Of a stretch of DNA of 64,000 nucleotides, positions 4,430 through 35,096 are shown one piece after another. The translations under genes and the position numbers were made by a program. Within the stretch, counting starts at the first letter, position 1. Every line of letters starts with the position of its first letter. The stretch is taken from contig CAWANJ010000009.1 in NCBI GenBank assembly GCA_963783385.1, forward strand, positions 832,001-896,000, read 5' to 3'. The stretch is from an uncultured Gemmatimonadales bacterium (GTDB lineage Bacteria; Gemmatimonadota; Gemmatimonadetes; Palauibacterales; Palauibacteraceae). The notes beneath the pieces were generated by a model. It did no database searches and was not told where the DNA came from. It saw only the letters and a list, made by a program, of their open reading frames with translations.

Positions 4430-5124
4430 CCGTGGCCACGGCGCGCGGCCCCGCCCCCACACGCTGGAACCTCCTGCGCACGACCCGACGGCTGGGCCGC
4501 GTTCGCAAGGGAGCCGAGCTCCTCAGCCGGAAGCGGAGGGCGCTCGTGACCGAGCTGTTCGATCTCGCCCGTCCCGCGCTCGAGGATCGCACCCGGCTCG
4601 CCCGACGTGCCGCCACCGCCTACCCGGCCCTCCTGCGGGCGCTATCGGTCCGCGGCGGAGCCGACGCGCGCGCCCTGGGTTGGCCGACCCGGGACCCCGA
4701 GGTCGAAATGGAGCTCCACGAGACGTGGGGGGTCCGCGTGGCCGAGATCCTCGGAGCCCCGGGGATCCGGCGAACCCCGTTCGAGCGGGGCGTGGCGCCC
4801 GCCTGCACCGGCCCCTCGGTGACCGAGGCCGCCGACGAGTTCGAGGACTTCGTGGCGCTCCTCCTCGAGGCCGCCTCCCGGGAGACGCAGATCCGCAGGC
4901 TTGCCCGGGCCCTGGCGCGCACTTCGCGGCAGGTCAACACGCTCGAGCAGCGCGTGGGTCCGGACCTGGCGAGACAGGCGGCCGAGATCCGGCGCACGCT
5001 CGAGGAGCGCGAGCGTGAGGACCATTTGAGGTTGCGTCGGCTGGGCAAGAAGAAGGGCGGCCGGCCAGGGTCGCTGGAGGAAGCCGGCGCCGTCAGCCCT
5101 TCGGGCTCACCGCGTACCCGATGA
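4426..5124 (+). CDS. V/A-type ATP synthase subunit D
   Basis: PTRWNL, LLSRKR and RQVNTLE/LEERERE motifs; operon position. Confidence 0.92.
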
Positions 5125-6193
5125 TCGTGAGCGTGACCATGTAGACGATCATCGCGACGCCGAGCCAGATGAAGAGGCGCGTCCGCCGGCCCCGGACCGC
5201 CGGCCGGTCCAGCACGGGAACCAGGAACAGGAGCAGTCCGGCCAGCCCGAAGCCCAGGATGCCCACGGCCTCTCCCTCGAACCCGAGGATGTAGGCGGGC
5301 AGGTACTTCAGGGTCTGGAACATGAACATGAAGTACCACTCGGGCTTGATGCCCACCGGCGCCGATGCGAACGGGTCCGCCTTCTTCCCCAGCTCCGCGG
5401 GAAGGTAAGCCGCCAACGCGGCCAGAACGGCCAGCGCGGCGAGCCAGCCCAACAGGTCCCGGAGAAGGAAGTCCGGCAGGAACGGAATGCTGCGTGCCGG
5501 CTTCTGCTCGCTCTCCACCTCGGGCGGCACGCTCATCCCATGTCTCTGAACCAGGTACACGTGCAGACCCAGCACGAGGAAGACGAGCGCCGGCAGCACC
5601 GCGGTGTGGAGCGCATAGAATCGGGTGAGCGTCGCTCCCGTGACGTCATTCCCTCCTCGGAGCGCCCGCAGGAGGAACTGACCCACCCCCGGGACCACCC
5701 CGACGATTCGCGTACCCACCGTCGTGGCGAAGTAGGAGAGCTCGTTCCAGGGCAGCAGGTAGCCGGTGAAGCCGAGCGTCATCCCGAGCGCCAGCAACAC
5801 CACGCCCGTGAACCAGGTCAACTCCCGGGGCGGCCGGTAAGCCCTCAGGAGGAGCACGCTGAACATGTGGATGAACAGCGTGAAGATCATGAGGTTGGCC
5901 GCCCAGTGATGGATGGAGCGGACCAGCCAGCCGAAGTGCACGTCGGTCATCAGGAACTGGATCGACTCGTACGCGCCCTCGGCGTTGGGCCGGTAGTAGA
6001 ACAGGAGGAGGACGCCGGTCACGACCTGAACGATGAACAGGAAGAGGGTCATCCCGCCCAGGTAGTACCAGATCGTGTGGCGGTGGAGGGGGACCTGCTT
6101 CTTCTTCCCCAGGCGCTCCATCTCGCCCAGGATGCCCACGCGGTCGTCGAACCACGCCCGGAGAGCGCCCAACCGGCTGCCCGTGCCGCTCAT
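5093..6193 (-). CDS. Cytochrome b of a Rieske/cytochrome b complex (unsplit, canonical Qo site)
   Basis: Four heme-b His ([19 protein letters not shown]), TGYLLPW and PEWYF; no heme ci Cys (YYLGG). Confidence 0.95.
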
Positions 6194-6684
6194 CCGGCCT
6201 GTCCCCGGCTCACGACGATGCGGTCACCCTGCACGTTGACGACGTACTCCGCGAGCGGCTTGGGAGGCGGACCGGACACGTTGATCCCCTGGAGGTTGTA
6301 GTGCCCGTTGTGACACGGACACCAGATCTGGCTCAGGTCCGGTCGGTACTCGACGATGCATCCCAGGTGCGTGCACACGGCGGTGAAGGCGCGCAGGTCG
6401 CCCGACGGGGTGCGGATCAGAATGGCCGGCTTGTTTCCGAACTTGAAGATCTGGCCCGAATTGGGCTTGACGTCCTCGGGCTTGACGGACAGCGCCACGC
6501 TGTTCGCCGCCGATTGGGCCTCCTCCGGAGGGACAATGTAGCGAACGATGGGATAGAACACGGCCGCGGCGACGCCGCCCGCCCCGAGGCCCAGGATCCA
6601 GTTGACGACCTCGCGGCGGCTGGAGCCGTCACGCTGCGAGCCGCCCCGGCGCCCGTGCTCCTGGCGGACTTCCTCACCGTCCAT
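6190..6684 (-). CDS. Rieske [2Fe-2S] subunit (canonical)
   Basis: SRREVV Tat-like motif plus TM helix; CTHLGC and CPCHNG boxes intact; alternative GTG start at 6696. Confidence 0.95.
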
Positions 6685-8080
6685 GGCTTCCCTCACCTCC
6701 GTTCCCGCGCTGTTTTCCTTCTCCGGATCCGGCCGACCTTCCGGTCTTCCGGATCTTCAGCACCAGCATCGTGATGACCAGCAGGATCAGGGCTGCGGAG
6801 ACCGCCAGGCCCAGCCTGCGGACCTGGAGCTCCTGCAGCGCGTCCCGGCCCCGGGTGGCGGACTCGTCAGCCACCTCGAGTCCGGGATCGACCTTGGCCT
6901 TCACCGAGTCCACCACGAACGAGTGGATGGCGGCCCGCGCCTGGATGAGCGCGTTCCGGGCGTTGCTGAGGTTGGCCTGGGCCTGGCTCACCTCCATGCC
7001 GGCGTCCGCGGCACGACCGAGGATGGAGTCCGCCACCTGCATGCGGCCCGCCAGCGAGTCGATCAGCGAGCGCTCGCCCGTGGCCACCTGCGCGCCCTTG
7101 CTGTCGGCCGTGTGGCACCGACCGCAAACCGCGCTGTCCCCGACTCCCAGGAAGGCGTCCGTGGGCGCGTGGATCTCGTGGTTCCCGTGGCAGGTGACGC
7201 ATCCGGGAGCCCCGATCATGCTGAAGATCTCCGAGTGGAAGCTGGCCTCGAAGCGCCCGGCCTGTACGGCGTGACACTGACCGCACACGTTCACCACGCT
7301 GGAAACGCCCGGAGGGGTGGCTCCGTGGCTGCCGTGGCAGTCGTTGCACGTCGGAGCCGAGAGGTCGCCCTTCTGCGAGAGCGTCGCCCAGTGGACGCTC
7401 TTCTCATACTTCTGCATCTGGTCCGTCGGAATGCCGTACGGCTTCATGTAGTCCGCATCCGCGTGGCAGCGGCCACAGGTCCGGGCCACGTGGACGGGGT
7501 ACACGTTGGACTTGGGGTCCGACGGGGGGCGAATGGAGTGAATGTGGTGGCAGTCGGCGCACGTGGCCACGAGCGTGTCCCCGGCCGCGAGGCGGCGGCC
7601 GTGGACCGAAGTCCGGTACTCGGCGACCTGATCGACGCGCAGCGACGGGTTGAAGCGCTTCATGAACTGCGCGTCGGAATGGCAGCGTCCGCACAGCTCC
7701 GGGATGTCCTTCCGCGAGGGTATGCCGATGAACCCCTTCGCCGGATCCATGGCGCCGAAGCCGGAGTCCTTGTCATCGCCCCCGTGACAGGCGACGCACC
7801 CGAATCCCTTGCTCGCGTGGATGTCGTCGTGGAACTGCTTCGCCGGCGCCGAGAAGCGCTCGGAGTCGAGGGACCGGTGGCAGGTGACGCAGCTCTCCTC
7901 GGGCCGAGTCGCGCCCGTCGTGTCCGCGCTCGCCGCCCCCGTCGTGTCGGCGGCCGCGGCCGTGTCTCCTCGCGCCGGGGCGGCGGCCTCAGGGGTTCCC
8001 TGAGCGAAGATCTGTACGGTTCCGAAAGGCGATGCGGCCACAGCGAGGACGAAGCAAGCGAGTAGGGAGCGCACGCTCAT
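6674..8080 (-). CDS. Nonaheme cytochrome c with C-terminal membrane anchor
   Basis: Signal peptide from ATG 8080, 9 CXXCH motifs, helical region and C-terminal TM helix. Confidence 0.92.
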   Translation of the reverse strand: MSVRSLLACFVLAVAASPFGTVQIFAQGTPEAAAPARGDTAAAADTTGAASADTTGATRPEESCVTCHRSLDSERFSAPAKQFHDDIHASKGFGCVACHGGDDKDSGFGAMDPAKGFIGIPSRKDIPELCGRCHSDAQFMKRFNPSLRVDQVAEYRTSVHGRRLAAGDTLVATCADCHHIHSIRPPSDPKSNVYPVHVARTCGRCHADADYMKPYGIPTDQMQKYEKSVHWATLSQKGDLSAPTCNDCHGSHGATPPGVSSVVNVCGQCHAVQAGRFEASFHSEIFSMIGAPGCVTCHGNHEIHAPTDAFLGVGDSAVCGRCHTADSKGAQVATGERSLIDSLAGRMQVADSILGRAADAGMEVSQAQANLSNARNALIQARAAIHSFVVDSVKAKVDPGLEVADESATRGRDALQELQVRRLGLAVSAALILLVITMLVLKIRKTGRSAGSGEGKQRGNGGEGSHGR

Positions 8081-9306
8081 CGTGACCTCGCGCTGAGTGA
8101 CTGCAGGTAGGTCGCCACGTCGGCCGTCTCCTGGGCCGTCAGAGACGGCCACCTGGTCCCCGGCGCGGTCGTCCCCGACACGGTGAGGTGGCTCCACAGA
8201 GCGGCCAGGACCGCGGGGACCGAGCTCAGGTTACGCACCTTTCCCAGGTCGCCGGCCTGTCCTCGGCCCGCCCCGTCGAGCGTATGGCAGGCGAGGCATC
8301 CCTTGCCGCGGATCAGGGCCCGGCCCCTGGCGGCGTCCCCCGAGGTGGAGAAGTAGCGGGCGGAATACAGGTAGGCCACCAGGTCGGCCATCTCGTCCGG
8401 ACCCACGGACGGCACCGCCATGCCCCGCCGCTCCATCCCCGCGATCATCGCGGGAGCCTCGTTCCACATGGCCGCCGCGAAGTCGATGAGCGTCCGCCCG
8501 GTGTCACGGCCGGAGAAGTCCGGGCCCCTCTGGCCCGGGCCCGTCCCATCGTGGCAAGTCGCGCAGCCCTTGGCCTCGAAGACCTGTCGTCCCATCTCCG
8601 CGCTCCCCGGTAGCACGTAGAACTGCCCTTCGCGGGGCGCCTCGGCACGGGACTCGAGGAAGGAGATGAGGTCGAGGAGCTGCTGGCCCGTGAAGGTGGG
8701 ACGCCGAATGCCCAGCGTGCGCATCTTCCGCATCATGGCCGGCCCATGGTTCCACAGGGCGGCGGCCACCACGATGGGCGAGCCGAACTGGCTGAGGAAG
8801 TCCAGGTCCGGGCCCACGACCCCGCCGGACCCGTCCACCTGGTGACACCGTATGCACTGCTTCTCCGAGAACAGCCGCTCCCCCCGGAGCGGGTCTCCCT
8901 GCTGGCCGAACGCGTTCACCGTCGACAGGAAGGCGCTCAGGTCACCGGCCTCCTCCGGCGTGAGGCGGAACGGCTTGACATCCCGCGCGAGCATGCGCTC
9001 GCGCATGCCCGGGAGATGGTTCCAGATGTCGGCGGCGAGGCCGAAGAAGGTGGGCGGCCCCTCCAGCCGGCCCAGGTCGGGGCCGATGTGGGCACCGATG
9101 CCGTTGATGGCATGACAGCCCGAGCATCCCTTGGAGCCGAAGACCCGGGCGCCCGTCAGGGCGCTCTCTGCGGAGGGAGGCGGCTGCTGGGCCGCCAGGC
9201 GGCCCGCGGGAATCCATCCGAACACCGCCAGCACCACGATCCCCACGAAGCGCAGAAGGCGTGGCCACACGCGGTCCGTCACCGAGGTGCGCATGGGGTG
9301 CGTCAC
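8077..9306 (-). CDS. Cytochrome c with four class-I-like monoheme domains
   Basis: CSGCH, CIRCH, CATCH and CLACH, with recurring GPDL and WNH-P-M elements. Confidence 0.88.
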   Translation of the reverse strand: MTHPMRTSVTDRVWPRLLRFVGIVVLAVFGWIPAGRLAAQQPPPSAESALTGARVFGSKGCSGCHAINGIGAHIGPDLGRLEGPPTFFGLAADIWNHLPGMRERMLARDVKPFRLTPEEAGDLSAFLSTVNAFGQQGDPLRGERLFSEKQCIRCHQVDGSGGVVGPDLDFLSQFGSPIVVAAALWNHGPAMMRKMRTLGIRRPTFTGQQLLDLISFLESRAEAPREGQFYVLPGSAEMGRQVFEAKGCATCHDGTGPGQRGPDFSGRDTGRTLIDFAAAMWNEAPAMIAGMERRGMAVPSVGPDEMADLVAYLYSARYFSTSGDAARGRALIRGKGCLACHTLDGAGRGQAGDLGKVRNLSSVPAVLAALWSHLTVSGTTAPGTRWPSLTAQETADVATYLQSLSARSR

Positions 9307-9379: not shown

Positions 9380-9844
9380 CTAGCTCTTCCCCTGGCCCTT
9401 GTCTTCCTTTTCCGCCTTGGCCGGGTGATGGCACACCGGACACATGTCGCTGGTGCGGCCGGCGTGGCTGGCGGGAATGTCCGGCACGTTCTTCATGGCC
9501 CCGGGCTTGTGGCACATGAGACATTCGCTCCGTCCCTCCGTCTCGTGTGGGATCGCCGGCGGCGCGGCCTTCTGGACCTCGGCGTCCGGCGCGTGACACA
9601 GGAGGCACTCCTTGACCGTGCGGCCTTTGTGGTCCGCGGGCATGGCGGGCACGTTCTTCATGGCGCCCGAGTGGCACATGACGCAGTTGCTTCTTCCCTC
9701 CAGAGAGTGCTTGACGACCGGGGGAGTCTTCCACTGCGACGCCGCGGGCTTCGCCGGCGCTTCCTTCTCCTGCGCGGCCGCCGGGGAGGCGACAACGGCT
9801 CCGAACAGAAGTGCGACGGCACCGACCGAAGCTATACGATTCAT
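9380..9844 (-). CDS. Small periplasmic tetraheme cytochrome c (duplicated NapB-like diheme unit)
   Basis: Signal peptide from ATG 9844; two copies of PP-x-x-x-H...EGRS-x-CxxCH...GAMKNVP...H-x-GRT...CxxCH. Confidence 0.85.
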   Translation of the reverse strand: MNRIASVGAVALLFGAVVASPAAAQEKEAPAKPAASQWKTPPVVKHSLEGRSNCVMCHSGAMKNVPAMPADHKGRTVKECLLCHAPDAEVQKAAPPAIPHETEGRSECLMCHKPGAMKNVPDIPASHAGRTSDMCPVCHHPAKAEKEDKGQGKS

Positions 9845-10017
9845 AACGGCTCGCTCCTTAGAAGTACTGGAGGATCGACCCTGCACTCTAACGTCCCTTT
9901 CGGACCTCAGCAACAAGGACGGCACCGGGGCGCCCGACGTCACGCCATTCGCCCTCCCGGGGCGCTCACCCTGCGCAACGGCCACGCGCAGATTGGGGCC
10001 CGAGCAACCCTCCGGCA

Positions 10018-10155
10018 GTAGGGAGAAACCCGACCGGGCCGGTGGGGAAATCCGCCACCGCCTCGAGGCGCGGGCTTCGGGCGCAGTCCCCTGTCACGAT
10101 TCGTCATGGGACCGATGCAGGTTCTCCCCACGAACGCCGTCGGGAAGTTCCCGAC
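10018..10155. promoter_or_regulatory. Two pairs of 17-bp palindromic boxes in the divergent promoter region
   Basis: GTAGGG-AGAAA-CCCGAC (10018) and GTGGGG-AAATC-CGCCAC (10042); half-match box at 10115 and GTCGGG-AAGTT-CCCGAC (10139); 24-bp spacing in each pair. Confidence 0.55.
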
Positions 10156-10504
10156 AGCCCCACGCCGGCGCCTTGTGAATAATGGTACTTGAGTTTCGCC
10201 GCCCCGCGGCGAGCCTTCTCGGTTCCTCGACGAGGAGGCGTCGGAGGGGGTCGACAGCGCGTGGTCAAATCGATTATGATAGAAGCGTCTAAGCGTCGGG
10301 ACTGTACCCCCCTGGACCGGGTCGTGAACGACACGGCCGGCCAGTGTCACGCCCAGGGCCACCCAGGTGGCTCCAGACGATCAGACACCTCAGCGTGCAA
10401 GGTCTGCCTGTCCCGGCACCGATCCCGAGTCCGTCATGTTGGAGCCCGGTGAATGAGCGGTCCATTCGGGCACGCGTCGAGCTATTAGCTCCCAGGAGCG
10501 TTCT

Positions 10505-12079
10505 ATGCGATCCGTTCGTTGGCTGTCACGTTTCCTGGCCGCCCTGGTTGTGGTCGGCGGTGTCCTGGCCACCGGCTGTACGGACCGGGTGACGGTCTTC
10601 AAGCAGAAGCCCTTCTTCGACCAGCCCCCGGCCGGGGCCGGTGACTTCCTGGGCTACAGCGACCAGACGACCCAGACCACGGTGTGCGGCGACTGCCACG
10701 TCGGCGTGCAGGCGTCCTGGATCAAGACCAAGCACGCCAGCGCGTGGGCGGACCTCGAGGCGTCGGGGCATGCCAACGACACCTGCCGGCAGTGCCACAG
10801 TGTCAACGAGTTCGGCAACGCGACCACCGACTCGGGCGGCTGGACCACGACCAAGGACGCCCGCTACCAGGACGTCCAGTGCGAGAGCTGCCACGGTCCG
10901 GGACTCCAGCACGTCGAGAACCCGGATGCGAGCCAGCCGATCCCGTCCCTGGCGGTCCAGACGGACACCACGAGCCTCACGAACGGGTGCGCCGAGTGCC
11001 ACAACGGAACGCACCATCCCGTTCGTGGAGCAGTGGGCGCTGTCGAAGCACGCCACGTTCATCAACGGCGGGCCCACCGGCCACGCGGCGACGACCGAGG
11101 CGTGCGTCGGCTGCCACACCGGCCAGGGCGCGCTGGACCGGTGGGGCGTGACCGGGCCTTACAAGGAAAAGGACGCGTCGACGCCGATGCCGATCGTGTG
11201 CGGCGTGTGCCACGACCCGCACGGGAGCCCGAACCTGCACCAGCTCCGCTTCCCGATCGAGACCAGCTCGATCGAGACGCACCTGTGCGCCCAGTGCCAC
11301 AACTACGAGACGAGCCCCAATGGGGCGAGCCCGTACGGCCTCTCGCCGATGGCGCCCGAGGCGCAGCTCCTGGTGGGGACGGCCGGGTACTTCCCGCCCA
11401 ACCTCGACCTCACGCAGGCCGACTCGATCCACGGCACGCACGGGAGCACGGCGAACCCGACCCTGTGCACGACGTGTCACGTGCACGCGTTCAGCACGAC
11501 GCTGAAGGACACGGACGCGCCGTTCTCCGCGGTGGGCCACACCTTCAACGCGCTCCCCTGCATGGAGAACGGGGTACCCTCGGGGAACCTGGACTGCGCG
11601 ATCACGACCACGGCCCGGAGCTTCGACGCCTGCACCACCTCGGGGTGTCACGGTGACGCCGCCGCGACGCGCTCGGTCCTGATCTCGCGGCTCGTACTCG
11701 TCAAGGAGCGCTCGGACACGCTCAAGGCGATGCTCGACCGGATCGATCCCAACGGCACCCAGGCCGGCGGGGCCATCGATCCGAACGACGGCGTGCTGAC
11801 GCCGGCCGAGGGAGCCTTGTTCAACTACAATCTGGCCAACTGGCTGGAGGAAGTGAACGGCCAGAACAACAGCCCGGCTACTACCCGAACGGGTTCACCA
11901 ACCAGTACGTGAGCCTGCTGGGCTCGACGGTCCACAACCCGTTCCTTCTGACGGCGCTGCTGGACGGGAGCATCAATCAGCTGGCGACCACATACGCCGC
12001 GGCCAGCACGAACCCGACGTACCTGCAGCAGATCAAGACCGAGATCACGGACATCAAGGCCAAGGGCCAGGTCCACTGA
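10505..12079 (+). CDS. Multiheme cytochrome c lipoprotein, 8 CXXCH + 1 CX4CH (two apparent frameshifts, ~11018 and ~11875)
   Basis: Lipobox LATGC; ORFs 10505 and 10641 join, and a third frame reads ...GSTVHNPFLLTALLDGSI...GQVH* to TGA 12077-12079. Confidence 0.85.
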
Positions 12080-12105
12080 GGCCGGTCCGTGCGAGACGCC
12101 AGCGA

Positions 12106-12134
12106 GGCGGGCGGCCCCGGTCGGGCCGCCCGTC
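12106..12134 (+). other. GC-rich stem-loop after the cytochrome lipoprotein gene (stabiliser or terminator)
   Basis: GGCGGGCGGCCC-CGGTC-GGGCCGCCCGTC; no U-tract. Confidence 0.45.
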
Positions 12135-12177
12135 GCCTGGTTCGAGCCGCCCCTCCAACCCTCACTTCACGCAGATC

Positions 12178-13692
12178 ATGACGACCAGGCCCGGGCGCCT
12201 ACGCCGCGTGGGAGCGAGCCGTGCGCGGTGGATCCGGCGAGAGCTGCTCTCGCTCGTCGTGCTCGCGGCCGCGAGCCCGGCCGGGCTCGCGGCGCAGGGC
12301 TACAGCGCCAACGTCCAAGCGGGCATGGCCTCGGTGAAGCTCCGCCCGCTGGTCCGTGACAGCGTGCCCGAGTCCACCGTGCCGGGCCAGGGCCTTCTGC
12401 GGCGGCTCCCCAACGGCATCGTGGCGACCTGCATCCCGGGCGAGTACTGCCGATGGTACGGATCGGGCGCCGTGCGCTCGCTCACGACCGTGACCCAGGA
12501 GATCCACCTGGCCGCATGGCCCGGGATCCGGGGGCTGGCGGTCCACGCTCACATGCGTGGCTGGTACGGAAGCGACGGGGAGTGGCCGCTTTCGAGCCAC
12601 AGGCTCGAGGTGATGACCGCCTACCTCAGCTACGACATCTCCCGCTTCCATTTCGAGGGCGGCCGTCAGGACCGATTCGATGGCCTCGGGTACCGGAACT
12701 TCGACGGGCTCTCGGCCCGCTGGGACGGACTCGAGCCCCTGTCGGTCGAGGCCTACGGCGGTTGGTACCTGGCCCCCAACCTGGATGCGCCGCTCACCAG
12801 CTCGCTGATCTCCGACGCCGAGCCCCTGGCCTCGTGAACGACCGCGGACTGGTGTTCGGGGGCGAGCTCCAGGCCCACGCGGGTCGTCGCCTCTCCGGTT
12901 CGGCGGTCTACCAGCGGGTGATCCGGACGGACCGCCTGGCGCTGTACTCGGAGCGCGCGGCGCTGACGGCTCACGCCTTTCTCGGGCCCGCCAGCATGGA
13001 CCTCTCCGGGCGGTACGACTTCTCCTTCCAGCAGCTCGATCAGGTCCACGCGCGCGTGTCGGTGCCGGTTCGACCTTGCCTGGAACTCACGGCCGAGTAC
13101 CGACACTACCGTCCCTTCTTCCCGCTGTGGACGATCTGGGGCGCGTTCAGCCCGGTCGGCTACGACGGCGGCAGCGGCAGCCTGACCTGGCGGGTCCCCT
13201 CCCTCGGTCTCGGCCTGCAGGCCGGCGGCGGATACCGCTGGTACGAGAACTCGAGCACGGCGGGCGGAAACCTGGCCGGCTTCAAGGACACGGGCTGGCG
13301 CGCCTTCGGCGGCGCCAACTGGGCCTCCGGCGACTTGGTTCGCCAACGGCCAATACCAGGCGGACATCGGGCCGGGAGCGGCGGACATGGGTGGAGACCT
13401 GTCCGCCGGACGTCGCTTCGGCGAGAGGAGCTGGCTGGCTCTCCGGGCCACGTCCACCCGCAGCTTCGGCGAGTATCGGCTCGGTGACCAGCGGCTCACC
13501 GGCGCGGGACTCATCGGGTCCGCGCCGGTCGGCGACCTCCTGTTAACGGGCAGCGCGGGATTCTACCGGCTGTCCTACACGAACCGGCCGGCGATCACGG
13601 ACTGGACGCAGTTCCGGATGTTCCTGGGGGTGGGATACCACTTCGGCAGCGAGCCGACGGTCGCGTCGGTCCTGAAGGGGTACGGCCAATGA
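12178..13692 (+). CDS. Putative outer-membrane beta-barrel porin (apparent frameshifts ~12832 and ~13336)
   Basis: Signal peptide; alternating aromatic/Gly beta-strand pattern across ORFs 12178, 12453 and 13387; near-terminal FLGVGYHF; lies between two multiheme cytochromes. Confidence 0.75.
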
Positions 13693-25645: not shown

Positions 25646-25699
25646 ACGGCCCACCGCCCGCCGGCCCGGCGTGGTTTCCTCGACCTGGAGTGTAGAGCC

Positions 25700-27031: not shown

Positions 27032-27222
27032 CGGACCGTGGCCGCAGCGCGACCGCCGCTTTCACACCGGCCGCACTCGGTTCGTCCTAGCCACGGATGA
27101 GGGACCCGTGGCCGGCTCGTCGGGACGGCAAGGGCACAGCGGAGGCCGGAGATGCGAGAGGGAATGATCGGAGTAGCGGCACTTCCCGTGGAGCGACCCG
27201 CCGGGGTCGCCGGCACCTGTCC

Positions 27223-27774
27223 GTGACGGAGAGCGGGGCGGCCAGGGCCCGGAAACCGTCCGTGGCGGCCTGGGTCGAGGAGCACGGCGGCGAGCTGCGC
27301 CGACACCTCGAGCGCATGCTCCCGGGACCGGACGCGGCGGACGACGTGCTCCAGACCGTGTGGATCACCGCGCATCGCAAGCCCCCCGAGGCACCGGACG
27401 GACCCGCCTTGCGCGCCTGGCTGTACCGGGTCGCCACCAACGCCGCCCTCGACCGGCTGGGCGCCGAGCGTCGCCGGCGGCGTGCTCTGGAAGGCCGCCC
27501 CCTGCTCCTGGCCCCCGAGCCACGACCGGCGCCGGACGCGGCCCTGAAGGGCCTGGGTGAGCGGGCGCGCCGGCGGGTGCGGGAGCACGTCGCGGCGCTG
27601 CCCCCCAAGCAGCGGCAGGCCGTGTGGATGCGGTGGGCCGAGGGCCGCAGCTACACCGACATCGCCGCCCGGCTCGGATGCTCCGAGGAGAGCGCCCGCG
27701 GCAACGTGTACCAGGGGATGAAGCGGCTCCGGTCGGAGCTGTTCGGGCTGTGGCACGAGGAGGCGGGAGCATGA
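27223..27774 (+). CDS. ECF sigma-70 factor
   Basis: ADDVLQ, RAWLYRVATN, region 4 LPPKQRQAV..SYTDIA..LG; start uncertain. Confidence 0.9.
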   Translation: MTESGAARARKPSVAAWVEEHGGELRRHLERMLPGPDAADDVLQTVWITAHRKPPEAPDGPALRAWLYRVATNAALDRLGAERRRRRALEGRPLLLAPEPRPAPDAALKGLGERARRRVREHVAALPPKQRQAVWMRWAEGRSYTDIAARLGCSEESARGNVYQGMKRLRSELFGLWHEEAGA

Positions 27775-28475
27775 TCGGACAGCCCTGCTGGGTTTCGGAA
27801 GAGGGCCTGGTGGCCTTCGTGGCCGGGGAGCTCGAGCCCGAGGCCGAAGTGGCGGTGGCCCGCCACCTGGCCGAGTGCGCCGCCTGCCGCGAAGAGGCGG
27901 CGCAGTACCGGCTGCTGGGGGCGGCCATGGCGGAGGAGGCCGGCGCCGAGGCGGTTCGCTGGCACGCCTTCTCGAGCCCCTTCGGACGGATGTACGCGGC
28001 CGCCACGCCCGGCGGCCTGGTCCGGGTCTCCTGGCAGCGGCCCGGCGACGACGCCTTCGAGGCCGAGCTGCACGACCTGCTGCCGGGCCGGCCGGTCCTG
28101 CACGATCCGAGCGATCACCTCCTGCTCGAGGCGGAGCGCCAGCTGGGCGAGTACTTCGCCGGCGAGCGGGAAGCCTTCGACCTTCCCGTGGACCTCGAGG
28201 CCCTCCCGACCTTCTCGCGGCGGGTGCTCGAGGCGCTGCAGGAGGTGGAGTTCGGCCAGGTGGTGGCCTACTCGGACCTGGCCCGCCGGATCGGACGGCC
28301 GCGGGCCTCGCGGGCCGTCGGCAACGCCCTGGGCCGGAACCCGGTGGCCATCGTCGTGCCCTGTCACCGCGTCGTGCGCCAGGATGGCTCGCTGGGCGGC
28401 TACGGCGGCGGCGTCGAGTACAAGGAGCGCCTGCTGGCGGTCGAGGGTCGACAGGACCTTCTCCGGGCGGGCTGA
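27771..28475 (+). CDS. ogt: Zinc anti-sigma (zf-HC2) domain fused to methylated-DNA-protein-cysteine methyltransferase
   Basis: N-terminal HLAECAAC; C-terminal RAVGNALGRNP..VPCHRVV..GY.GG...K..LL..E. Confidence 0.88.
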   Translation: MIGQPCWVSEEGLVAFVAGELEPEAEVAVARHLAECAACREEAAQYRLLGAAMAEEAGAEAVRWHAFSSPFGRMYAAATPGGLVRVSWQRPGDDAFEAELHDLLPGRPVLHDPSDHLLLEAERQLGEYFAGEREAFDLPVDLEALPTFSRRVLEALQEVEFGQVVAYSDLARRIGRPRASRAVGNALGRNPVAIVVPCHRVVRQDGSLGGYGGGVEYKERLLAVEGRQDLLRAG

Positions 28476-28491: not shown

Positions 28492-29016
28492 TCAGGCCGC
28501 CGTCCCGCCGGGGACGAGCCGCACTCCGGCTGCCAGGGCATCGTCGAAGGCGATCTCGGCGTGGTCCACCCGGACGATCCACGCCGGATAACGCTGCACG
28601 ACCTCCACCGCGACGCCGGGGAGTACGCCCAGACTCGCCAGGGCGCGGCCCTCGGCACTGGCGGGATCCTCGAGACCCGCCACGGTGGCGCGCTCTCCGG
28701 GCTGGAGCTCGAGCAGGGTGCCGGGGGCGCTGACACGGCGGCGGGCCCCGAGGCCGGCCACGAGACGGCGCAGGAAGCCGCCACCTTCCCGCCGGCCCTC
28801 CCGTGCCCTTCCCCGCTCGATCCAGGCCGGCTCGACGGGGTTCTCGTAGCCGCAGTGGGGACAGCGGACGTAACGGCAGGCTCGCGCCAGGGGGCAGCCC
28901 GCGCAGACGGGCTGAGCCCGATCCTCGCGGAACCGGCGACCGCAGAGCCCACATTCCACCTGGCGACCGCCGTGGCCGGAAGCAATCGACGCGGAAGCCG
29001 GCGACGAGCCGTTCAC
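28492..29016 (-). CDS. feoA: FeoA with N-terminal 7-Cys domain
   Basis: GTG at 29016 overlaps the feoB stop; CGLC..CAGCPL..C...CPHCGY followed by an SH3-like LASLGVLPG domain. Confidence 0.8.
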   Translation of the reverse strand: MNGSSPASASIASGHGGRQVECGLCGRRFREDRAQPVCAGCPLARACRYVRCPHCGYENPVEPAWIERGRAREGRREGGGFLRRLVAGLGARRRVSAPGTLLELQPGERATVAGLEDPASAEGRALASLGVLPGVAVEVVQRYPAWIVRVDHAEIAFDDALAAGVRLVPGGTAA

Positions 29017-31073
29017 AGGCCGATCCCCCGCAGCGCAAGGTTGAGCACGAACCCGACCCCGAACGCGAACGTCACGGCGAACGCGAAGATCCCGGCCGCG
29101 ATCTTCGGCCCCCTCTCCTTCCACATCATGAGGAACTGCGCCACGCACGGGACGAACAGCGTGAGCGTCACCGCCGACACGAGGAGCCCGACCGTGTCCA
29201 GGACCCCCGTCCGCTGAAGCTCGTACAGGCCCGCGGCCCCGTAGTCGCGCCGGAAGAACCCGAGGAGGAACACCGATGCCGTCTGCCGGGGGAGGCCCAG
29301 CGCGGCCACCATCGGGTGGAGAAGGTTCAGGACCCGGTCCAGGAGCCCGGTGACCTGTCCCGCCCACAGGAGCACGCTGGCCAGCATGAACAGCGGAATG
29401 ACCTCCAGCAGGTACCAGTGCAGGCGCGTGGCGGTCTTCCGGACCACGTTGGAGGCGCGCGGCACGCGCAGGGGCGGGAGCTCCATGTGGAAGGCCGCCG
29501 ACCGCCCCGGCAGGACCCTCGCCCCCACCGCCCCGATCAGGAGGAAGGTGCCGGCCAGGACCGCCACCCACAGCCCGAGCGCGACCGGCTGTCCCGAGAG
29601 GATGGCCAGGATCACGCCGAGCTGGGCCGAGCACGGTATCGCCAGGGCGAGCAGGACCGTGGCCAGGATCCTCTCACGCCGGGTCTCGAGCGTCCGGGCG
29701 ACCATCGTGGCCATGGTGTCGCACGCGAACCCGAGCACGATGGGAATCACCGCCCTCCCGTTGAGGCCGAGCCGCTTGAACAGCCGATCCACGAGCAGGG
29801 CCAGCCGGGGCAGGTACCCGCTGTCCTCGAGCACGGAGAAGAACAGGAAGAAGGTTGCGACGATCGGCAGGATGATGGCGATCGCGTAGCGGAGGCCCAG
29901 GGTGAGGAGCCCGTAGTCGCCCACCCACAGCCCCCGGAGCCACGGCCAGGGAATGCCTCGGAACAGGCTCTCCAGGAACGGATTGACGCGGCCCAGGAAC
30001 AGGGAGCGCTCCAGCCAGTCCACCAGGGTGCCGGCTCCGAAGTGCCCCACGAACTCGTACAGACCCAGCCACAGGACGACCACCAGGACGGGGATGCCGG
30101 GCAGCGGCCGCGCCAGCCAGCGGCCGAGTCTCTCCGCGACCCTGACCCGACGTTCACCCGTTCTCTCGAGCACGTGCTCGGCCAGGGACCGAGCCACCTC
30201 GTGACGCTCCACCGCCGACCGGTAGGCCGTCCCGTCCTGCGTCCCGGCCGCGACCTCCCGGATCGCCTCTCCCGCCCGCCGTCCTCCATCCGTCTCGGTG
30301 GCCTCCACCATCGCTTGCGTCTCTTCGTCCGCCTGGAGGAGGAAGGAGGCGACCGCTCGCCGCGGCATGGCATAGCGGCCGGACAGGGCACCCGTCACGG
30401 CCTCGACCGCCACGGCCACATCGGGTCGCCGCCGCACCGGCTCGGGCGCCTCGCCCGCGCGGATGGCCCGGAGGATCGCCCGCTCCAGCTCCGTCACCCC
30501 CTCCCCGGTCACCGCCACGATCGGGACGACATCCAGGCCCAGCCGCAGGGCGAGGAGGTCCGGCCGCAGCTCCAGGCCGAGCGGATCGAGCTCGTCCACC
30601 ATGTTGAGGGCGAGGACGAGGGGCTTCCCGAGCTCCATGAGGTCGAGCGTGAGGGGGAGGGACCGCGCCACGCAGCGGGCCTCGACGACGTGGACCAGCG
30701 CGTCGATGCCCTCCTCGAGCACCAGGCGCCGGGAGACGCGCTCCTCCTCGGTGGTGGGCGACAGCGAGTACAGACCGGGCGTGTCCACCACGCGCGCGAC
30801 GTGCCCGTCCAGCCGACCCACGCCGTAGGTCACCTCGACCGAGGTCCGGGGATAGTTGGAGACGGTGACGTACCGCCCGGTCAGGCGGTGGAAGAGGGTG
30901 CTCTTCCCCACGTTGGGGGCCCCCACGAGGGCCACGCGCCAGGCGGCCTCCTCCGGCGCGCTCCCCGACGGGATCGGCGCGCTTCGCCGGGCCCGCGGCG
31001 GGGAGCACATGGGACACGCGCCCGATTCCTCGAGGGCGGTCCGTGCCATCGGCGCGTTCGGTCGCAGGCTCAT
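29013..31073 (-). CDS. feoB: Ferrous iron transporter FeoB
   Basis: GAPNVGKST, DTPGLYSL, NMVD, LEDSGYLPR, IPCSAQ, MELPP, LFVPCVA. Confidence 0.95.
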   Translation of the reverse strand: MSLRPNAPMARTALEESGACPMCSPPRARRSAPIPSGSAPEEAAWRVALVGAPNVGKSTLFHRLTGRYVTVSNYPRTSVEVTYGVGRLDGHVARVVDTPGLYSLSPTTEEERVSRRLVLEEGIDALVHVVEARCVARSLPLTLDLMELGKPLVLALNMVDELDPLGLELRPDLLALRLGLDVVPIVAVTGEGVTELERAILRAIRAGEAPEPVRRRPDVAVAVEAVTGALSGRYAMPRRAVASFLLQADEETQAMVEATETDGGRRAGEAIREVAAGTQDGTAYRSAVERHEVARSLAEHVLERTGERRVRVAERLGRWLARPLPGIPVLVVVLWLGLYEFVGHFGAGTLVDWLERSLFLGRVNPFLESLFRGIPWPWLRGLWVGDYGLLTLGLRYAIAIILPIVATFFLFFSVLEDSGYLPRLALLVDRLFKRLGLNGRAVIPIVLGFACDTMATMVARTLETRRERILATVLLALAIPCSAQLGVILAILSGQPVALGLWVAVLAGTFLLIGAVGARVLPGRSAAFHMELPPLRVPRASNVVRKTATRLHWYLLEVIPLFMLASVLLWAGQVTGLLDRVLNLLHPMVAALGLPRQTASVFLLGFFRRDYGAAGLYELQRTGVLDTVGLLVSAVTLTLFVPCVAQFLMMWKERGPKIAAGIFAFAVTFAFGVGFVLNLALRGIGL

Positions 31074-31388: not shown

Positions 31389-32786
31389 ATGTTCAATAAG
31401 TTGAGGAGTTCCGCCATTTTGGGCGGGCCACTCTCGTTGGTCGCGATCCTGGTACTCGCCGGGGCACGGACGGGCGAAGCCAGCGTGTCGGCCGGAAAGG
31501 CCATGTCACTCAAGGACGTTCCGATTCCGAGCTTCTCCCGTCAGACCGGCCTGGCCTGCTCGGCATGCCACACCGCGTTTCCGCAGCTCACCCCGTTCGG
31601 TCGCCAGTTCAAGCTGGACGGCTACACCATGATGGGCGGTGAGCAGAAGGTCGAGGCCAAGAAGAAGGACGGCGGCACGTCGCTCCAGCTGGGCGTCATT
31701 CCGCCCCTGTCCTTCATGCTCCAGAGCGCGTACTCGGTCGTGAACACGAAGGTACCCGACACGCAGAACGGCGACCTTCAGTTCCCGCAGGAGTTCAGCG
31801 TGTTCGTCGGCGGCGAGATCGCGCCGAAGCTCGGCTCCTTCGTTCAGATTACGTACGACCCGGAGGGCGCGGCGCTCGGCCTGGACAACACGGATCTCCG
31901 CTTCGCGACCCACAGCTCCCTGGACTCGAAGGACCTGACGCTCGGCCTGACGCTGAACAACAATCCGACGGTCGAGGACCTGTGGAACTCGACCCCGGCG
32001 TGGGGCTATCCGTACGCCTCGTCGGAGGTGGGCCCCGGACCCGCCGCCGGCACCCTGGTGGACGGGGCGCTCGGCCAGGAGGTCGCCGGGCTCGGCGGCT
32101 ACGGGATGTTCAACAGCACCCTGTACGGAGCCTTCACGCTGTACCGATCGGCCCAGCAGGGAGGCCCCCAGCCGCCGGACGTGACCGCGGAGGGCGTGAT
32201 CAGCGGCGTGGCGCCCTACTGGCGTGCGGCCCTCACCCACGACTGGGGCACGAACTCCTTCGAGCTCGGGACCTTCGGCCTGCACGCGCAGATGTTCCCC
32301 AACGGCATCAGCGGCCTGACCAACAAGTTCACCGACGTGGCCCTGGACGCCCAGTACCAGCACATCACGGCACTGGGAGCGCTGACCGCGCACGGGGCGT
32401 TCATCCACGAAAAGCAGACCCTGGACGCCACGTACCAGGCGGGTGAGTCGGACAATCCCACGAACAATCTGAATACGGTCCGGGGCGACGTCTCCTACCA
32501 CTGGAACGACGCGGGCCTGGGCCTGACGCTGGGAGCCTTCTCGACCACGGGCACCACCGACGCCGGCCTGTACGGCCTCGCGGCGGTGGATGGCAGCGCC
32601 ACCGGGAACCCCAAGACGAACGGCTTCATGGGCCAGATCGGCTACATGCCCTGGCTCAACACGCGCTTCGTCCTCCAGTACGTGCTGTACAACGATTTCA
32701 ACGGCGGCAGCACGAACTACGACGGGTTCGGACGCTCCGCCTCCGACAACAACACGCTCTATCTGCTGAGCTGGATCATGTTTTGA
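31389..32786 (+). CDS. cyc2: Cyc2-like fused monoheme cytochrome-porin
   Basis: IPSFSRQTGLACSACH..FPQLTPFGRQFKLDGY signature followed by a beta-barrel ending in F. Confidence 0.85.
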   Translation: MFNKLRSSAILGGPLSLVAILVLAGARTGEASVSAGKAMSLKDVPIPSFSRQTGLACSACHTAFPQLTPFGRQFKLDGYTMMGGEQKVEAKKKDGGTSLQLGVIPPLSFMLQSAYSVVNTKVPDTQNGDLQFPQEFSVFVGGEIAPKLGSFVQITYDPEGAALGLDNTDLRFATHSSLDSKDLTLGLTLNNNPTVEDLWNSTPAWGYPYASSEVGPGPAAGTLVDGALGQEVAGLGGYGMFNSTLYGAFTLYRSAQQGGPQPPDVTAEGVISGVAPYWRAALTHDWGTNSFELGTFGLHAQMFPNGISGLTNKFTDVALDAQYQHITALGALTAHGAFIHEKQTLDATYQAGESDNPTNNLNTVRGDVSYHWNDAGLGLTLGAFSTTGTTDAGLYGLAAVDGSATGNPKTNGFMGQIGYMPWLNTRFVLQYVLYNDFNGGSTNYDGFGRSASDNNTLYLLSWIMF

Positions 32787-33018: not shown

Positions 33019-33435
33019 ATGACGAAGGTGAGACTCACGGCCATGATGACCGTCCTGTTCACCCTCGCCCTGGTCGGAGGGGCCGCCGCGCGCGAGCCGC
33101 AACCGGCGGTGGCGAGGTGGGCGACCGCCGCCGACTCCGACACGGCCGCCCAGATCACCGAGGCCATGATCAATGCGGGGCGGAAGATCTTCCACGGGCC
33201 GGGCAGCTGCTTCGCCTGCCATGGACAGAACCTCCAGGGGACCGCGATCGCCCCGCGTCTGAGCGATTCCACCTGGAAGAACGGAGACGGAAGCTACGCC
33301 GACATCGTCAAGATCATCACGAACGGCGTGCCGGGAACCGCCATGGTGTCACACCCGGGAGGCATCAGTGATCAGCAGCTCCTGAAGGTGGCAGCCTACG
33401 TGTGGGCGGTGAGCCACGGGAAGGCGAAGGACTAG
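33019..33435 (+). CDS. Periplasmic monoheme cytochrome c
   Basis: Signal peptide, CFACH, G.AP.L.D..W, distal Met in GVPGTAM. Confidence 0.9.
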   Translation: MTKVRLTAMMTVLFTLALVGGAAAREPQPAVARWATAADSDTAAQITEAMINAGRKIFHGPGSCFACHGQNLQGTAIAPRLSDSTWKNGDGSYADIVKIITNGVPGTAMVSHPGGISDQQLLKVAAYVWAVSHGKAKD

Positions 33436-33574: not shown

Positions 33575-34108
33575 TCAGTGGTTCGGTGCGCTCACGGCGG
33601 AGGGCGGCTCACCGGTGACGGCGATCGTTCCCTTCATCCCGAACGACTGGTGCGGCACGCACTCGTAGGAGTAGGTGCCCGCAGGAAAGTACGCCGGGTC
33701 GATCACCAGCTGGTACGTCGCCCCCTGGCTCACGAGGAAGGGGCTCATCTTGGGAGGCGCCCCCTTGGCGTCGAAGACGGTGCGGCTCGCCGCCATGATC
33801 GTGGGAAAGCTACGGGAGGAAAGCCGACCCCCCGAAGGCTCATTCGTGAACTCGACGTCGTGGGGCGTGTTCGTGGTGTTGACCCATCGCACCGTGTCGC
33901 CGGGCACGACCGTGACGTTCGAGGGAACGAACTTGAAGTTCTCCATCTGGATCGTGACCGTATGGGGGTGCCCGGTGTCCTGCTGGGCCGCCGCGCTCGT
34001 GGCGGTGATCGCCAGCGCGACCAGCGCGGCGCCGATCACGAGCTGGAGGGACCAGATCAGATCTATCTGTCGTCGTGACACTTTCGGTCTCCGGACTGTT
34101 CGAGTCAT
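33575..34108 (-). CDS. Type-1 blue copper protein (plastocyanin/azurin family)
   Basis: F.PS.VTV.PGDTVRWVN, PHDV, YECVPHQSFGMKG (His/Cys/His/Met ligands). Confidence 0.92.
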   Translation of the reverse strand: MTRTVRRPKVSRRQIDLIWSLQLVIGAALVALAITATSAAAQQDTGHPHTVTIQMENFKFVPSNVTVVPGDTVRWVNTTNTPHDVEFTNEPSGGRLSSRSFPTIMAASRTVFDAKGAPPKMSPFLVSQGATYQLVIDPAYFPAGTYSYECVPHQSFGMKGTIAVTGEPPSAVSAPNH

Positions 34109-34182
34109 CCATCGCCCAGAACCATCGGTTCCGGGAGCGAACTCTCACAGCCAGAATAAAACAAAGCGCGGGCTCCTCCACC

Positions 34183-34247
34183 GTAGGGAATTCCCCCACG
34201 AACAGGGTGGGGCAACTCTCCATCGGGTGTGAGGGGCCCGCGCCTAC
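34183..34247. promoter_or_regulatory. Three 17-bp boxes at 24-bp period upstream of the cupredoxin
   Basis: GTAGGG-AATTC-CCCCAC (34183), GTGGGG-CAACT-CTCCAT (34207), GAGGGG-CCCGC-GCCTAC (34231). Confidence 0.55.
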
Positions 34248-34277
34248 ATCTGTAGACCGGGTCGCGCGCCGCCTACA

Positions 34278-35096
34278 TCAGTCGGCGCCGCGGCCTCTGG
34301 CCGCGTGAGCCTTCAGGAACGACTCGATCCCGCTGAGCTGGTCCGTGGTCAGGGTGTCGACCTGCATCAAATGCATGTTCTGCTGCATGCGCGGAACGAC
34401 CTCGCTCCACTCGGACGCCGTGTGAGCCTTGGGTGAAGGCGTCTGGTGGCACACCGTGCACCGGCTGACGAAGACGGCCGCCTCCGGACCCGACGGTATC
34501 TCTCCGGCCTTCGCGACGGGTAGGGCGTTCCGCGTCAGGTAGGCCCGCAGGGAATCGATCTGCTCCCCGGTCGGCAGCGACCGGAAGGTCACGGCCGAGC
34601 GGAGCTGCTCCCCTCCGACGCGCTGCAGGAAGGGCCCGTTCACCCTGCCCTCGAGCAGGCTCATCCGCAGCTCCATGCGGCGCAGCAGGATGGGCCACTC
34701 CACCGCCGAGTGCATCTGGGGCGTCGGCAGCCAGTGGCACTGCGTGCAGTACGCCTGGAGAAGACCGGCCCCCGTGCTGTGTGGCTCCGGCAGAGCGGCG
34801 GCCGTGAAGCCCGCCGGGGGCAGGCCCGTCCCCAGCGACGCCACGGCACGCCAGCGCTGCGCCCGGCTCAGCTGAGCGAACTGCGGACCGCCCAGTTCCT
34901 CCATGAAGCTGTCGGCCCTGGCCACGATCGTTCCGTTCTGCGTCGACTGCGCGGCCTGCGGCGCGCCGCCTCGGGCGCACGCCACCAGGGCGAGCCCGGC
35001 CACGGCCAGCCCCAGCGGGAGAACCCAGCCGGATCCTCCCCTGCTCCGTCTGTGCGACGAGGCCGGGTGCTCGTCCGCCACTCCCTCGGTGCCCAT
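34278..35096 (-). CDS. Diheme cytochrome c, probable lipoprotein
   Basis: LVAC lipobox; two repeats of CxxCH..P.P..H.A.EW....RM. Confidence 0.85.
   Translation of the reverse strand: MGTEGVADEHPASSHRRSRGGSGWVLPLGLAVAGLALVACARGGAPQAAQSTQNGTIVARADSFMEELGGPQFAQLSRAQRWRAVASLGTGLPPAGFTAAALPEPHSTGAGLLQAYCTQCHWLPTPQMHSAVEWPILLRRMELRMSLLEGRVNGPFLQRVGGEQLRSAVTFRSLPTGEQIDSLRAYLTRNALPVAKAGEIPSGPEAAVFVSRCTVCHQTPSPKAHTASEWSEVVPRMQQNMHLMQVDTLTTDQLSGIESFLKAHAARGRGAD

Follow-up and report, generated by a model that had tools for sequence, protein, structure and literature searches.

A conserved bc-like module with a ligand-less Rieske-fold protein beside a porin-cytochrome conduit in Gemmatimonadota

Results

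The stretch of DNA analyzed here (hereafter the window) comprises 64,000 nucleotides of a contig from an uncultured Gemmatimonadales bacterium of the family Palauibacteraceae (GCA_963783385.1, CAWANJ010000009.1, positions 832,001 to 896,000) and contains, between positions 5093 and 35096, a dense succession of c-type cytochrome genes, in which a bc-like module (15714-20786) with a Rieske-fold protein lacking the [2Fe-2S] ligands lies next to the genes of a porin-cytochrome conduit. A six-frame count returned 86 CxxCH motifs in this interval versus one in the remaining window, and base-shuffled controls (n = 50) averaged 1.14 with a maximum of 3; two CX4CH motifs bring the heme-c total to 88, distributed among the genes as 9, 4, 4, 9, 16, 9, 22 and 11, and then 1, 1 and 2. 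The number of about 88 hemes and the per-gene counts given in a preliminary description of this DNA, drawn from its letters alone, were thereby recovered well above the shuffles, and Pfam found the parts named there, i.e., two cytochromes b, a Rieske and a Rieske-like protein, a NapC/NirT N-terminal domain, a cytochrome b561, FeoA, FeoB and a cupredoxin. Placement of the host in Gemmatimonadota, already considered probable, agrees with titled records whose porins are 79% and 48% identical and with named protein matches. The host genome (G000; 3.54 Mb, 92% complete) holds 148 motifs in multi-motif frames, more than half of them inside the window.

The gene at 15714-16184 (+ strand) encodes a membrane-anchored protein of Rieske fold in which Pfam and a homologue alignment revealed neither the [2Fe-2S] ligands nor a twin-arginine (Tat) motif, the two disulfide cysteines being kept. 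Its boxes read APTDGC and SPCT, versus CTHLGC and CPCH in the canonical paralogue of the window (6190). All four ligands were replaced and both disulfide cysteines retained in 113 of 113 homologues, and the same was true of the 30 loci (30/30) found in genomes; because both sets were collected by their resemblance to the query, they document that the family is conserved but cannot tell how far it extends. When 1.84 billion representatives were searched with a profile, a compact group of 14 sequences came out on top (E of 1.8e-26 or better), all ligand-less, followed mostly by canonical Rieske proteins, and the named members of the family are Gemmatimonadota. The Tat motif occurred in none of 76 usable N-termini, as opposed to 28 of 29 canonical orthologues. 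Tat export carries cofactor-loaded proteins, and its absence fits a protein without a cofactor to load before export. PF13806 was matched weakly, below the cut-off. Automatic annotation labels the cluster-less proteins as Rieske or nitrite reductase subunits, and their genomes are therefore credited with a bc complex that they may lack.

The next gene (16192-17469, + strand; Pfam and homologue alignment) encodes a cytochrome b with four heme-binding histidines, STWI in the place of PEWY and a changed cd1 helix. The four heme-b histidines were present in each of the 43 sequences aligned, all of which also carried (S)(T/S)W(V/I) at the PEWY position (P, E and Y each 0/43, W 43/43) and a Thr at the conserved small position of the cd1 helix. 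New acidic residues have appeared, a Glu in cd1 (41/43) and an Asp after the Trp (42/43), and an Arg lies five residues past the last heme histidine, in register with cytochrome b6, throughout the set (43/43). Residue roles in NrfH, b6 and bc1 are taken here as general background. The ratio of nonsynonymous to synonymous substitution rates (dN/dS) was 0.09-0.12 for both degenerate genes in comparisons with G003, a genome of the same genus, and G001, equal to the values of the canonical pair and of V-ATPase B: the cluster-less Rieske and its cytochrome b are under purifying selection. Pseudogene decay of the Rieske-like gene was considered and is ruled out by the 113/113 conservation and by a dN/dS of about 0.10. 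We consider it very probable that the module has neither a cluster nor a Q-cycle.

Two further genes complete the module, all four genes of which are in frame in the window, encoding a 9-heme cytochrome c with a C-terminal anchor (17466-18758, + strand; Pfam and comparison), paralogous to the product of 6674-8077, and a 22-heme cytochrome with a NapC/NirT-type N-terminal domain (18762-20786, + strand; PF03264 over cut-off, NrfH match), the invariable companion of the cluster-less pair. In 11 of 11 neighbourhoods, and additionally in G003, G016 and G017, the cluster-less Rieske gene is followed by those for the cytochrome b, the 9-heme protein and the 22-heme NapC-type protein, in this order. 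In a phylum sample of 301 Gemmatimonadota genomes, a NapC-type orthologue (E of 1e-108 or better, with a profile built from 15 cluster-less loci, kin genomes not being independent) was present in exactly the same 30 genomes as the cluster-less Rieske, about 3 kb downstream on the same contig and strand, and the porin described below occurred in all 30 as well; eight genomes of other classes contain more distant NapC-type genes. The 22-heme protein has an N-terminal membrane helix followed by the PF03264 domain, in which CxxCHxM and the conserved Lys of NrfH are kept. Complex prediction with the degenerate cytochrome b, the cluster-less Rieske, the C-terminal part of the 9-heme protein and the N-terminal part of the NapC-type protein scored 0.15 against a mark of 0.32, which is evidence neither way. 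We tentatively assign the quinol site of the degenerate complex to the NapC-type subunit, an assignment whose chances we put slightly short of even.

The cluster-less gene was found in 62 of 145 genomes sampled from the order, and 57 of these 62 also hold an orthologue of the canonical cytochrome b. Outside the order the canonical orthologue was absent from 8 of 24 genomes, and in G323 (96% complete, 4 contigs) and G391 (93%) the degenerate cytochrome b was the sole PF00033 match; the module can therefore stand alone. Two of the eight genomes with more distant NapC-type genes (G153 and G150, of another class) show the same four-gene order with an intact twin-arginine Rieske, and their cytochrome b has PEWY, or PDWY when subunit IV is encoded in its own frame; it shares an N-terminal extension with the degenerate cytochrome b, and its cd1 helix is unusual (Lys at the small position). 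The Rieske proteins of these genomes scored 73-82 bits on the cluster-less profile, versus 40-45 for canonical paralogues. A descent of the degenerate module from a form of this kind is suggested.

Upstream, and on the opposite strand, lies a Rieske/cytochrome b complex that retains cluster ligands, Tat motif, four histidines and PEWY (5093-8077). It consists of a long-form cytochrome b (5093-6193, - strand; PF00033 and PF00032), whose PEWY and Qi-position Asp were found in 26 of 26 orthologues, a Rieske protein with CTHLGC/CPCH and a twin-arginine motif (6190-6696, - strand; PF00355 over cut-off), both boxes of which are kept in the 29 orthologues printed and a Tat-like motif in 28 of them, and a 9-heme cytochrome c with a C-terminal membrane anchor (6674-8077, - strand; motif count and Pfam), which is likely the acceptor of the complex. 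A periplasmic cytochrome with four class I monoheme domains (8077-9306, - strand; four PF00034 stretches) and a small tetraheme periplasmic cytochrome (9380-9844, - strand; motif count and Pfam) follow. A further quinone interface is formed by an 11-heme cytochrome with a C-terminal anchor (20804-22117, + strand; motif count and Pfam) and a cytochrome b561-type membrane subunit (22114-22965, + strand; PF01292 over cut-off), the c-type and b-type halves of a split CbcL/CbcBA-like pair. Two of the labels initially given to these interfaces need rewording: 'bc-type twice' holds for the first module and fails for the second, which has neither Rieske cluster ligands nor PEWY, and 'CbcL-like' is right as to domain content and wrong as to fusion, the two genes being split also in G003. 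Relatives carry fused paralogues (19-heme c-b fusions).

The conduit is encoded by three genes between these modules. The first (10505-12079, + strand) specifies a lipoprotein cytochrome with nine hemes (eight CxxCH and one CX4CH), a candidate surface reductase homologous to OcwA, as established with the intact G003 orthologue, whose sole Protein Data Bank (PDB) match was 6I5B (E of 1.1e-10), the OcwA entry according to the accessible part of PMC9250108. Homology extends over several stretches, and the genus and many homologues retain the His-His pair that aligns with H281/H282. The second gene (12178-13692, + strand) has an intact G003 orthologue, 91-94% identical, which was modelled from a 118-row alignment as an outer-membrane β-barrel of 22 long strands without plug, at a predicted local distance difference test (pLDDT) score of 90.9; this model was used instead of a single-sequence one (pLDDT 28.8). 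Its structural matches were outer-membrane barrels, including FyuA (Z 18.5) and MtrB (Z 16.6, 8% identity, root mean square deviation 4.5 over 362 residues), and no match was obtained in Pfam and NCBIfam, libraries which may not include the Geobacter OmbB profiles. The third gene (13689-15418, + strand; motif count and G003 comparison) encodes a 16-heme periplasmic cytochrome, the porin partner. The barrel and the porin-cytochrome trio of the preliminary description are therefore confirmed, the lipoprotein and periplasmic multiheme genes adjoining the porin in the window, G003 and G001, and the complete inner-membrane-to-surface chain proposed there is plausible from the gene parts.

The porin profile recognized 133 of the 301 phylum genomes at an E of 1e-20 or better. 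In 12 of 12 further loci, hand-picked on long contigs and spread across families, a gene for a 14-16-heme protein came after the porin gene and one for an OcwA-like lipoprotein before it, the lipoprotein and porin genes being usually separated by a gene of about 20 hemes. Some relatives carry the OcwA-like lipoprotein in two or three tandem copies (L089 in G241, L038, L020 in G017), which suggests substrate-specific variants. In genus g17 of the host family the porin was absent from 15 of 16 sampled genomes and the cluster-less Rieske from all 16, and this pattern is one of lineage-wide loss or absence.

G003 keeps the whole series of genes, beginning with the V-ATPase and ending with the last diheme cytochrome, colinear and in frame, and G001 is colinear with the window as far as its contig reaches; the locus is therefore inherited and not an island, as it had first been called. 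The only tRNA lies at 46 kb, and the guanine plus cytosine (GC) content is 0.67-0.72 over 5-25 kb versus 0.71 for the genome. In G160, G188, G323 and G391, too, V-ATPase genes lie near the degenerate module. The stretch is represented in sequencing runs of sediment, soil and salt marsh (21 runs, 11 with shares below 0.2, of which X16 was examined). Three DNA runs carry long near-identical pieces of it, and one of these runs may be the source sample.

Discussion

The block between 5.1 and 23 kb can be read, with a probability that we put at roughly 0.55, as an inherited locus for anaerobic respiration on extracellular acceptors, with parallel quinol exits that include a Q-cycle-free NapC-type module. 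Electrons from H2, formate or organic substrates would enter the quinone pool and leave it through several quinol-oxidising modules towards periplasmic multiheme cytochromes, and the 16-heme cytochrome would pass them through the 22-strand barrel to the OcwA-like surface lipoprotein, which would reduce Fe(III) oxides or humic quinones. One of the exits would be a bc-derived four-subunit complex without Q-cycle, in which the Rieske-fold protein may act as a cofactor-free cap over a dead Qo site and the degenerate cytochrome b as a two-heme transmembrane wire, the 9-heme subunit would occupy the position of cytochrome c1, and the 22-heme NapC-type subunit would supply a quinol site on the periplasmic side. 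Exits of different proton yield would serve acceptors of different potential, in the manner of Geobacter ImcH, CbcL and CbcBA.

That outward transfer is the main role appears somewhat probable. It is favoured by the homology of the surface lipoprotein to a reductase of Fe(III) oxides, since OcwA is described, in the accessible part of PMC6703420, as a nonaheme surface protein that reduces iron oxides and electron shuttles. A group-1-type periplasmic [NiFe] hydrogenase (small, large and cytochrome b subunits, with hyp maturation genes) is encoded about 4 kb before the window (L153, G000:C9:823000-829000), in an operon oriented away from that of the V/A-type ATPase, the latter extending into the window, and was counted for the donor side of an outward chain. 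Elsewhere the host encodes a caa3-type oxidase and an alternative complex III, together with a formate dehydrogenase-like molybdoenzyme, a second hydrogenase and heme c assembly genes; this separate aerobic chain was counted for an outward anaerobic role, as was the failure to find RuBisCO in the genome (92% complete). The gene content is that of a likely facultative heterotroph, and bc-family genes lie only in this cluster. The acceptors are probably iron minerals (Fe(III) oxides) or humic matter.

Several observations weigh against this reading. The Qi-position Asp is not conserved among the 43 degenerate cytochromes b. In the NapC-type domain, a Val stands (15/15, by register count) at the position that we take to be Asp89 of NrfH, with the numbering and the role of that residue assumed. 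In two trees, one of them quick, the cytochrome b clades formed a polytomy and the G153/G150 form was not resolved as sister of the degenerate clade. The second His pair of OcwA is not kept by the lipoproteins (H380 is found in most homologues and replaced by Met in this genus, and the H381 position is usually Ser or Ala), and proteins of the OcwA family reduce nitrite or NO in vitro, as stated in the available portion of PMC9250108. Of the 133 genomes with the porin, 103 have no degenerate module, which is therefore dispensable for the conduit. CbcL-type and CymA-type proteins serve reducers and oxidisers (PMC6295460), so that these families do not fix the direction, and five of the six frameshifts considered below fall in the conduit genes, which may therefore be broken in this strain. 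Direction and substrate, finally, are read from genes, as are complex formation, the absence of a cofactor in the Rieske-fold protein and the role of each subunit.

The same components may be arranged as a redox loop or inward route, in which periplasmic hemes, fed by an outside donor or a periplasmic dehydrogenase, would reduce quinone on the cytoplasmic side through bL and bH, the NapC-type subunit would reoxidise quinol on the periplasmic side, and protons would move outward without a Rieske step. Retention of both b hemes, the b6-register Arg and the new acidic Glu and Asp are consistent with such a route, as are the strict linkage to the NapC-type gene and the ability of the CbcL/MtoC and CymA families to act both ways; nevertheless the loss of the Qi-position Asp and the lack of a heme cn cysteine speak against it, and no donor-side enzyme was linked to the module in the neighbourhoods examined. 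We consider this alternative unlikely.

Rather less probable is a single Fe-cycling locus, in which the porin-cytochrome conduit would carry electrons outward and Fe(II)-derived electrons would enter through Cyc2, a blue copper protein and small cytochromes, to reach O2 or run uphill through bc. The genes concerned encode a Cyc2-like protein, a putative monoheme cytochrome-porin fusion (31389-32786, + strand), a monoheme class I cytochrome c (33019-33435, + strand; Pfam), a type 1 blue copper protein of the plastocyanin/amicyanin kind (33575-34108, - strand; PF00127), a diheme cytochrome c (34278-35096, - strand; motif count and NCBIfam), the ferrous iron transporter FeoB (29013-31073, - strand; TIGR00437 over cut-off) and FeoA (28492-29016, start approximate, - strand; PF04023 and translation), whose Cys-rich N-terminal region has the pattern CxxC, CxxC, CxxxxC, CxxC and may bind a metal or an Fe-S cluster. 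Similarly to Cyc2, the putative fusion protein has a signal peptide, a near-consensus N-terminal motif (PSFSRQTxxxCxxCH...PQL), a single CxxCH with PxL, 465 residues and porin-like Atlas neighbours (one at 0.97, with PF07396 on 20% of its members). With respect to the Cyc2 features available from 10.1101/228056 (AxPxFAR[QK][TY], single CxxCH, PxL, more than 365 residues), it departs only by Ser for Ala in FAR and at the first Ala; the likeness is one of sequence, and no relative was found among PDB sequences. The motif, the neighbouring genes for a monoheme cytochrome, a cupredoxin, a diheme cytochrome and FeoAB, which are colinear with those of G003, the caa3-type oxidase of the genome and the provenance of the holders from sediment, soil and salt marsh would all suit Fe cycling. 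However, about 6 kb of unrelated genes separate this block from the conduit, full-length close orthologues of the Cyc2-like protein occur in 5 of 145 order genomes, as compared to 62 for the degenerate module (one more is partial, and 37 others gave weak N-terminal matches), and its few named close relatives belong to Gemmatimonadota and Calditrichia, not known as Fe oxidisers. Moreover, the motif is FSR and not FAR, the function of Cluster 3 Cyc2, to which the window protein may or may not belong, is deemed the most uncertain in the accessible text of 10.1101/228056, and no RuBisCO was found. The Cyc2-like/FeoAB block is a separate, patchy add-on, and the initial idea of one locus for electrons both out and in is not supported; inward flow is therefore weakly supported, inward Fe(II) oxidation via the Cyc2-like protein being possible on the gene content. 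The intervening genes (24777-28475), without evident redox role, encode a tetratricopeptide repeat (TPR) lipoprotein, an M28 peptidase-PDZ protein, an extracytoplasmic function (ECF) sigma factor (Pfam) and an anti-sigma/DNA methyltransferase-like fusion (by eye from the translation).

The conduit could, instead, be decaying in this strain. Six frameshifts occur, near 11020 and 11875 in the lipoprotein gene, 12834 and 13335 in the porin gene, 14082 in the 16-heme gene and 23121 in a radical SAM gene, and the counts of 9 and 16 hemes and the porin are readable in the window only across them. Five of the six, all uncompensated, fall within three conduit genes that make up 18% of the coding length (p about 0.001), and for runs X1 and X5 no correcting indel appears at most sites, among the rows listed. 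Nonetheless, G003 and G001 have undamaged conduit genes. In run X6, a contig of 17.4 kb is free of the extra bases at 11017, 12831, 13333 and 14079, RNA run X16 is free of that at 11017, and run X1 shows the correcting indel at 12831. The frameshifted stretch is also the most strain-variable, with 165 differences over 10014-14943 versus 21 over 15711-22562, and there a mixed-strain consensus would err; the middle part of the lipoprotein is 91% identical to that of G001 versus 84% to that of G003. Consensus errors in a strain-variable stretch are probably the cause, and real decay is quite improbable. Short contigs of run X16 cover 13 of 30 bins, mostly of the lipoprotein cytochrome; such contigs give no expression level, and DNA may be present.

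Least credible is an asymmetric bc dimer, first suspected from the 57/62 co-occurrence, with the degenerate pair as silent half beside a canonical Rieske/cytochrome b monomer joined through a bL-bL bridge: the two gene pairs often lie within 10-20 kb and have paralogous 9-heme partners, but the two cytochromes b share no more than about 40% identity and form separate long-stemmed clades. An obligate heterodimer was rejected in view of G323 and G391, devoid of any other cytochrome b family gene, and of the 8 of 24 genomes outside the order without canonical orthologue; an optional heterodimer is improbable.

Returning to the reading of the module as a Q-cycle-free quinol exit, its closest counterparts are the bc1 and b6f complexes, the nearest solved chains being a cytochrome b6 (7r0w, E of 3.6e-51) and a b6f-type Rieske (8hn2, E of 7.3e-13). 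It shares with them the order Rieske, cytochrome b, c-type acceptor, the Rieske fold with its N-terminal anchor and disulfide pair, and the four heme-b histidines, and differs by the lack of cluster ligands, Tat motif and PEWY, the changed cd1 helix, the multiheme acceptors and the constant NapC-type partner. Cytochromes b whose Qo motif deviates (SxWF in clade L) or is absent (clade H, Ignavibacterium, Melioribacter) are known, as are large conserved operons of unknown function around clade G' cytochromes b, according to the accessible part of Dibrova et al. 2017 (PMC5600118); section 8 of its supplementary file 3 mentions, in the portion available, no ligand-less partner Rieske for the atypical clades, and the only Gemmatimonas entry found in the available part of its set carries PEWY, unlike the degenerate cytochrome b. 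The degenerate module is likewise not mentioned in the accessible portions of PMC7908018, PMC4122944 and PMC7399161, and nothing relevant on a ligand-less Rieske in a bc operon emerged from the literature searched, which leaves out most subscription papers. NirD-type proteins (PF13806), which we take to be cofactor-free, also keep the Rieske fold without cluster ligands; NirD is, however, a soluble nitrite reductase subunit, whereas the cluster-less Rieske is membrane-anchored and occupies the Rieske slot of a bc-like operon. A separate set of Rieske-like proteins of about 216 residues (P0252, P0257, P0259, P0261, P0264, P0265, P0279, P0282, P0300), whose named members are Planctomycetota, has lost the box-1 ligands and kept CPCH, and possibly represents an independent partial degeneration.

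The conduit resembles MtrCAB, Geobacter Pcc/Ext and the PCC3/PCC4 systems (He et al. 2017) in combining a surface multiheme protein, a barrel and a periplasmic multiheme protein in one operon with inner-membrane quinone-active partners; it differs in its barrel, which has 22 strands and 8% identity to MtrB, and its surface partner is OcwA-like, not MtrC-like. Porin-cytochrome conduits beside petB/petC and NapC/NirT genes have been reported (PMC13264449 and PMC5566968, in the parts accessible). OcwA of Thermincola potens and the window lipoprotein have in common nine hemes, about 510-526 residues, homologous stretches and the first His pair; the latter is, in contrast, a diderm lipoprotein beside a porin, with the second His pair not kept and one heme of CX4CH type. 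Similarly, Geobacter ImcH/CbcL/CbcBA and this cluster share several parallel inner-membrane exits and the pairing of a multiheme c with a b561-type subunit, whereas CbcL is fused in Geobacter and split here, the likeness being one of domain content. ImcH, CbcL and CbcBA are each needed in their own range of acceptor potential (PMC12133095, available part).

Parts of such systems have been noted in the phylum before: Cyc2, MtrABC and multiheme genes are listed for Gemmatimonadota in the accessible parts of PMC11316326 and PMC9769843, CbcL and ImcH homologues were reported (PMC6295460), and an mto-like system is described for a Gemmatimonas metagenome-assembled genome in the available text of PMC6137239. 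Only annotation-level mentions of the present cluster in Gemmatimonadota were found in the literature searched, with most subscription papers outside reach. The interest of the locus lies not so much in the number of its hemes as in the degenerate bc-NapC module and in the conduit found across the phylum.

Quinol oxidation at the Rieske cluster is the defining feature of complex III. The degenerate module, a derivative conserved under selection, has preserved the scaffold and the two b hemes but not the cluster, Tat motif and PEWY. With an intact relative of the same gene order in another class, it offers a natural test of what a cytochrome b can do without a Q-cycle, and it may reveal how the proton yield is adjusted to acceptors of low potential. 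It is a doubtful but specific proposal, which we advance with due reserve, that 15714-20786 encodes an undescribed bc-derived respiratory enzyme in which the iron-sulfur step is abolished, the 22-heme NapC-type subunit does the quinol chemistry and the b-heme wire is active, feeding the conduit of more than 40% of the sampled Gemmatimonadota. If true, this phylum, abundant in soil and sediment, would be a largely unrecognised mineral- or humic-respiring group. One porin-cytochrome family in 133 of 301 genomes makes it possible to test extracellular respiration on concrete genes of a phylum that is, as far as the accessible parts of the sources go, otherwise known in this respect only by genome annotations.

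Some minor features of the locus and of the host genome can be added. A sigma-70-like promoter match (10/12; 0.1 expected in shuffles) lies at 10251-10280, within the gap between divergent genes at 9.85-10.5 kb, and points towards the conduit. The gene after the b561-type subunit encodes a B12-binding radical SAM protein (22970-24740, + strand; NCBIfam, TIGR04190-like) that may modify a quinone, a lipid or a subunit; in G160 and G391 this gene directly follows the NapC-type gene, at more than 70% identity. The tRNA mentioned above is a tRNA-Ser(TGA) at 46076-46160, and the adjoining 35-46 kb region has a lower GC content and may be an integrated region unrelated to the cluster. On the same contig, a paralogue fragment of the OcwA-like lipoprotein (L152, G000:C9:441257-442156) with two hemes and 57% identity to the window gene lies beside the second hydrogenase and looks truncated. 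A second multiheme locus (L149, G000:C2:278700-287000) has 17-, 12- and 18-heme genes around a large porin-like gene and a ferredoxin/flavin oxidoreductase-like gene, assigned by eye, and resembles the conduit group with ferredoxin-NADP reductase described in the accessible part of PMC13264449. An octaheme cytochrome similar to hydroxylamine oxidoreductase (PF13447) is encoded at G000:C3:156845-158188 (L150), with a diheme peroxidase-family gene nearby.

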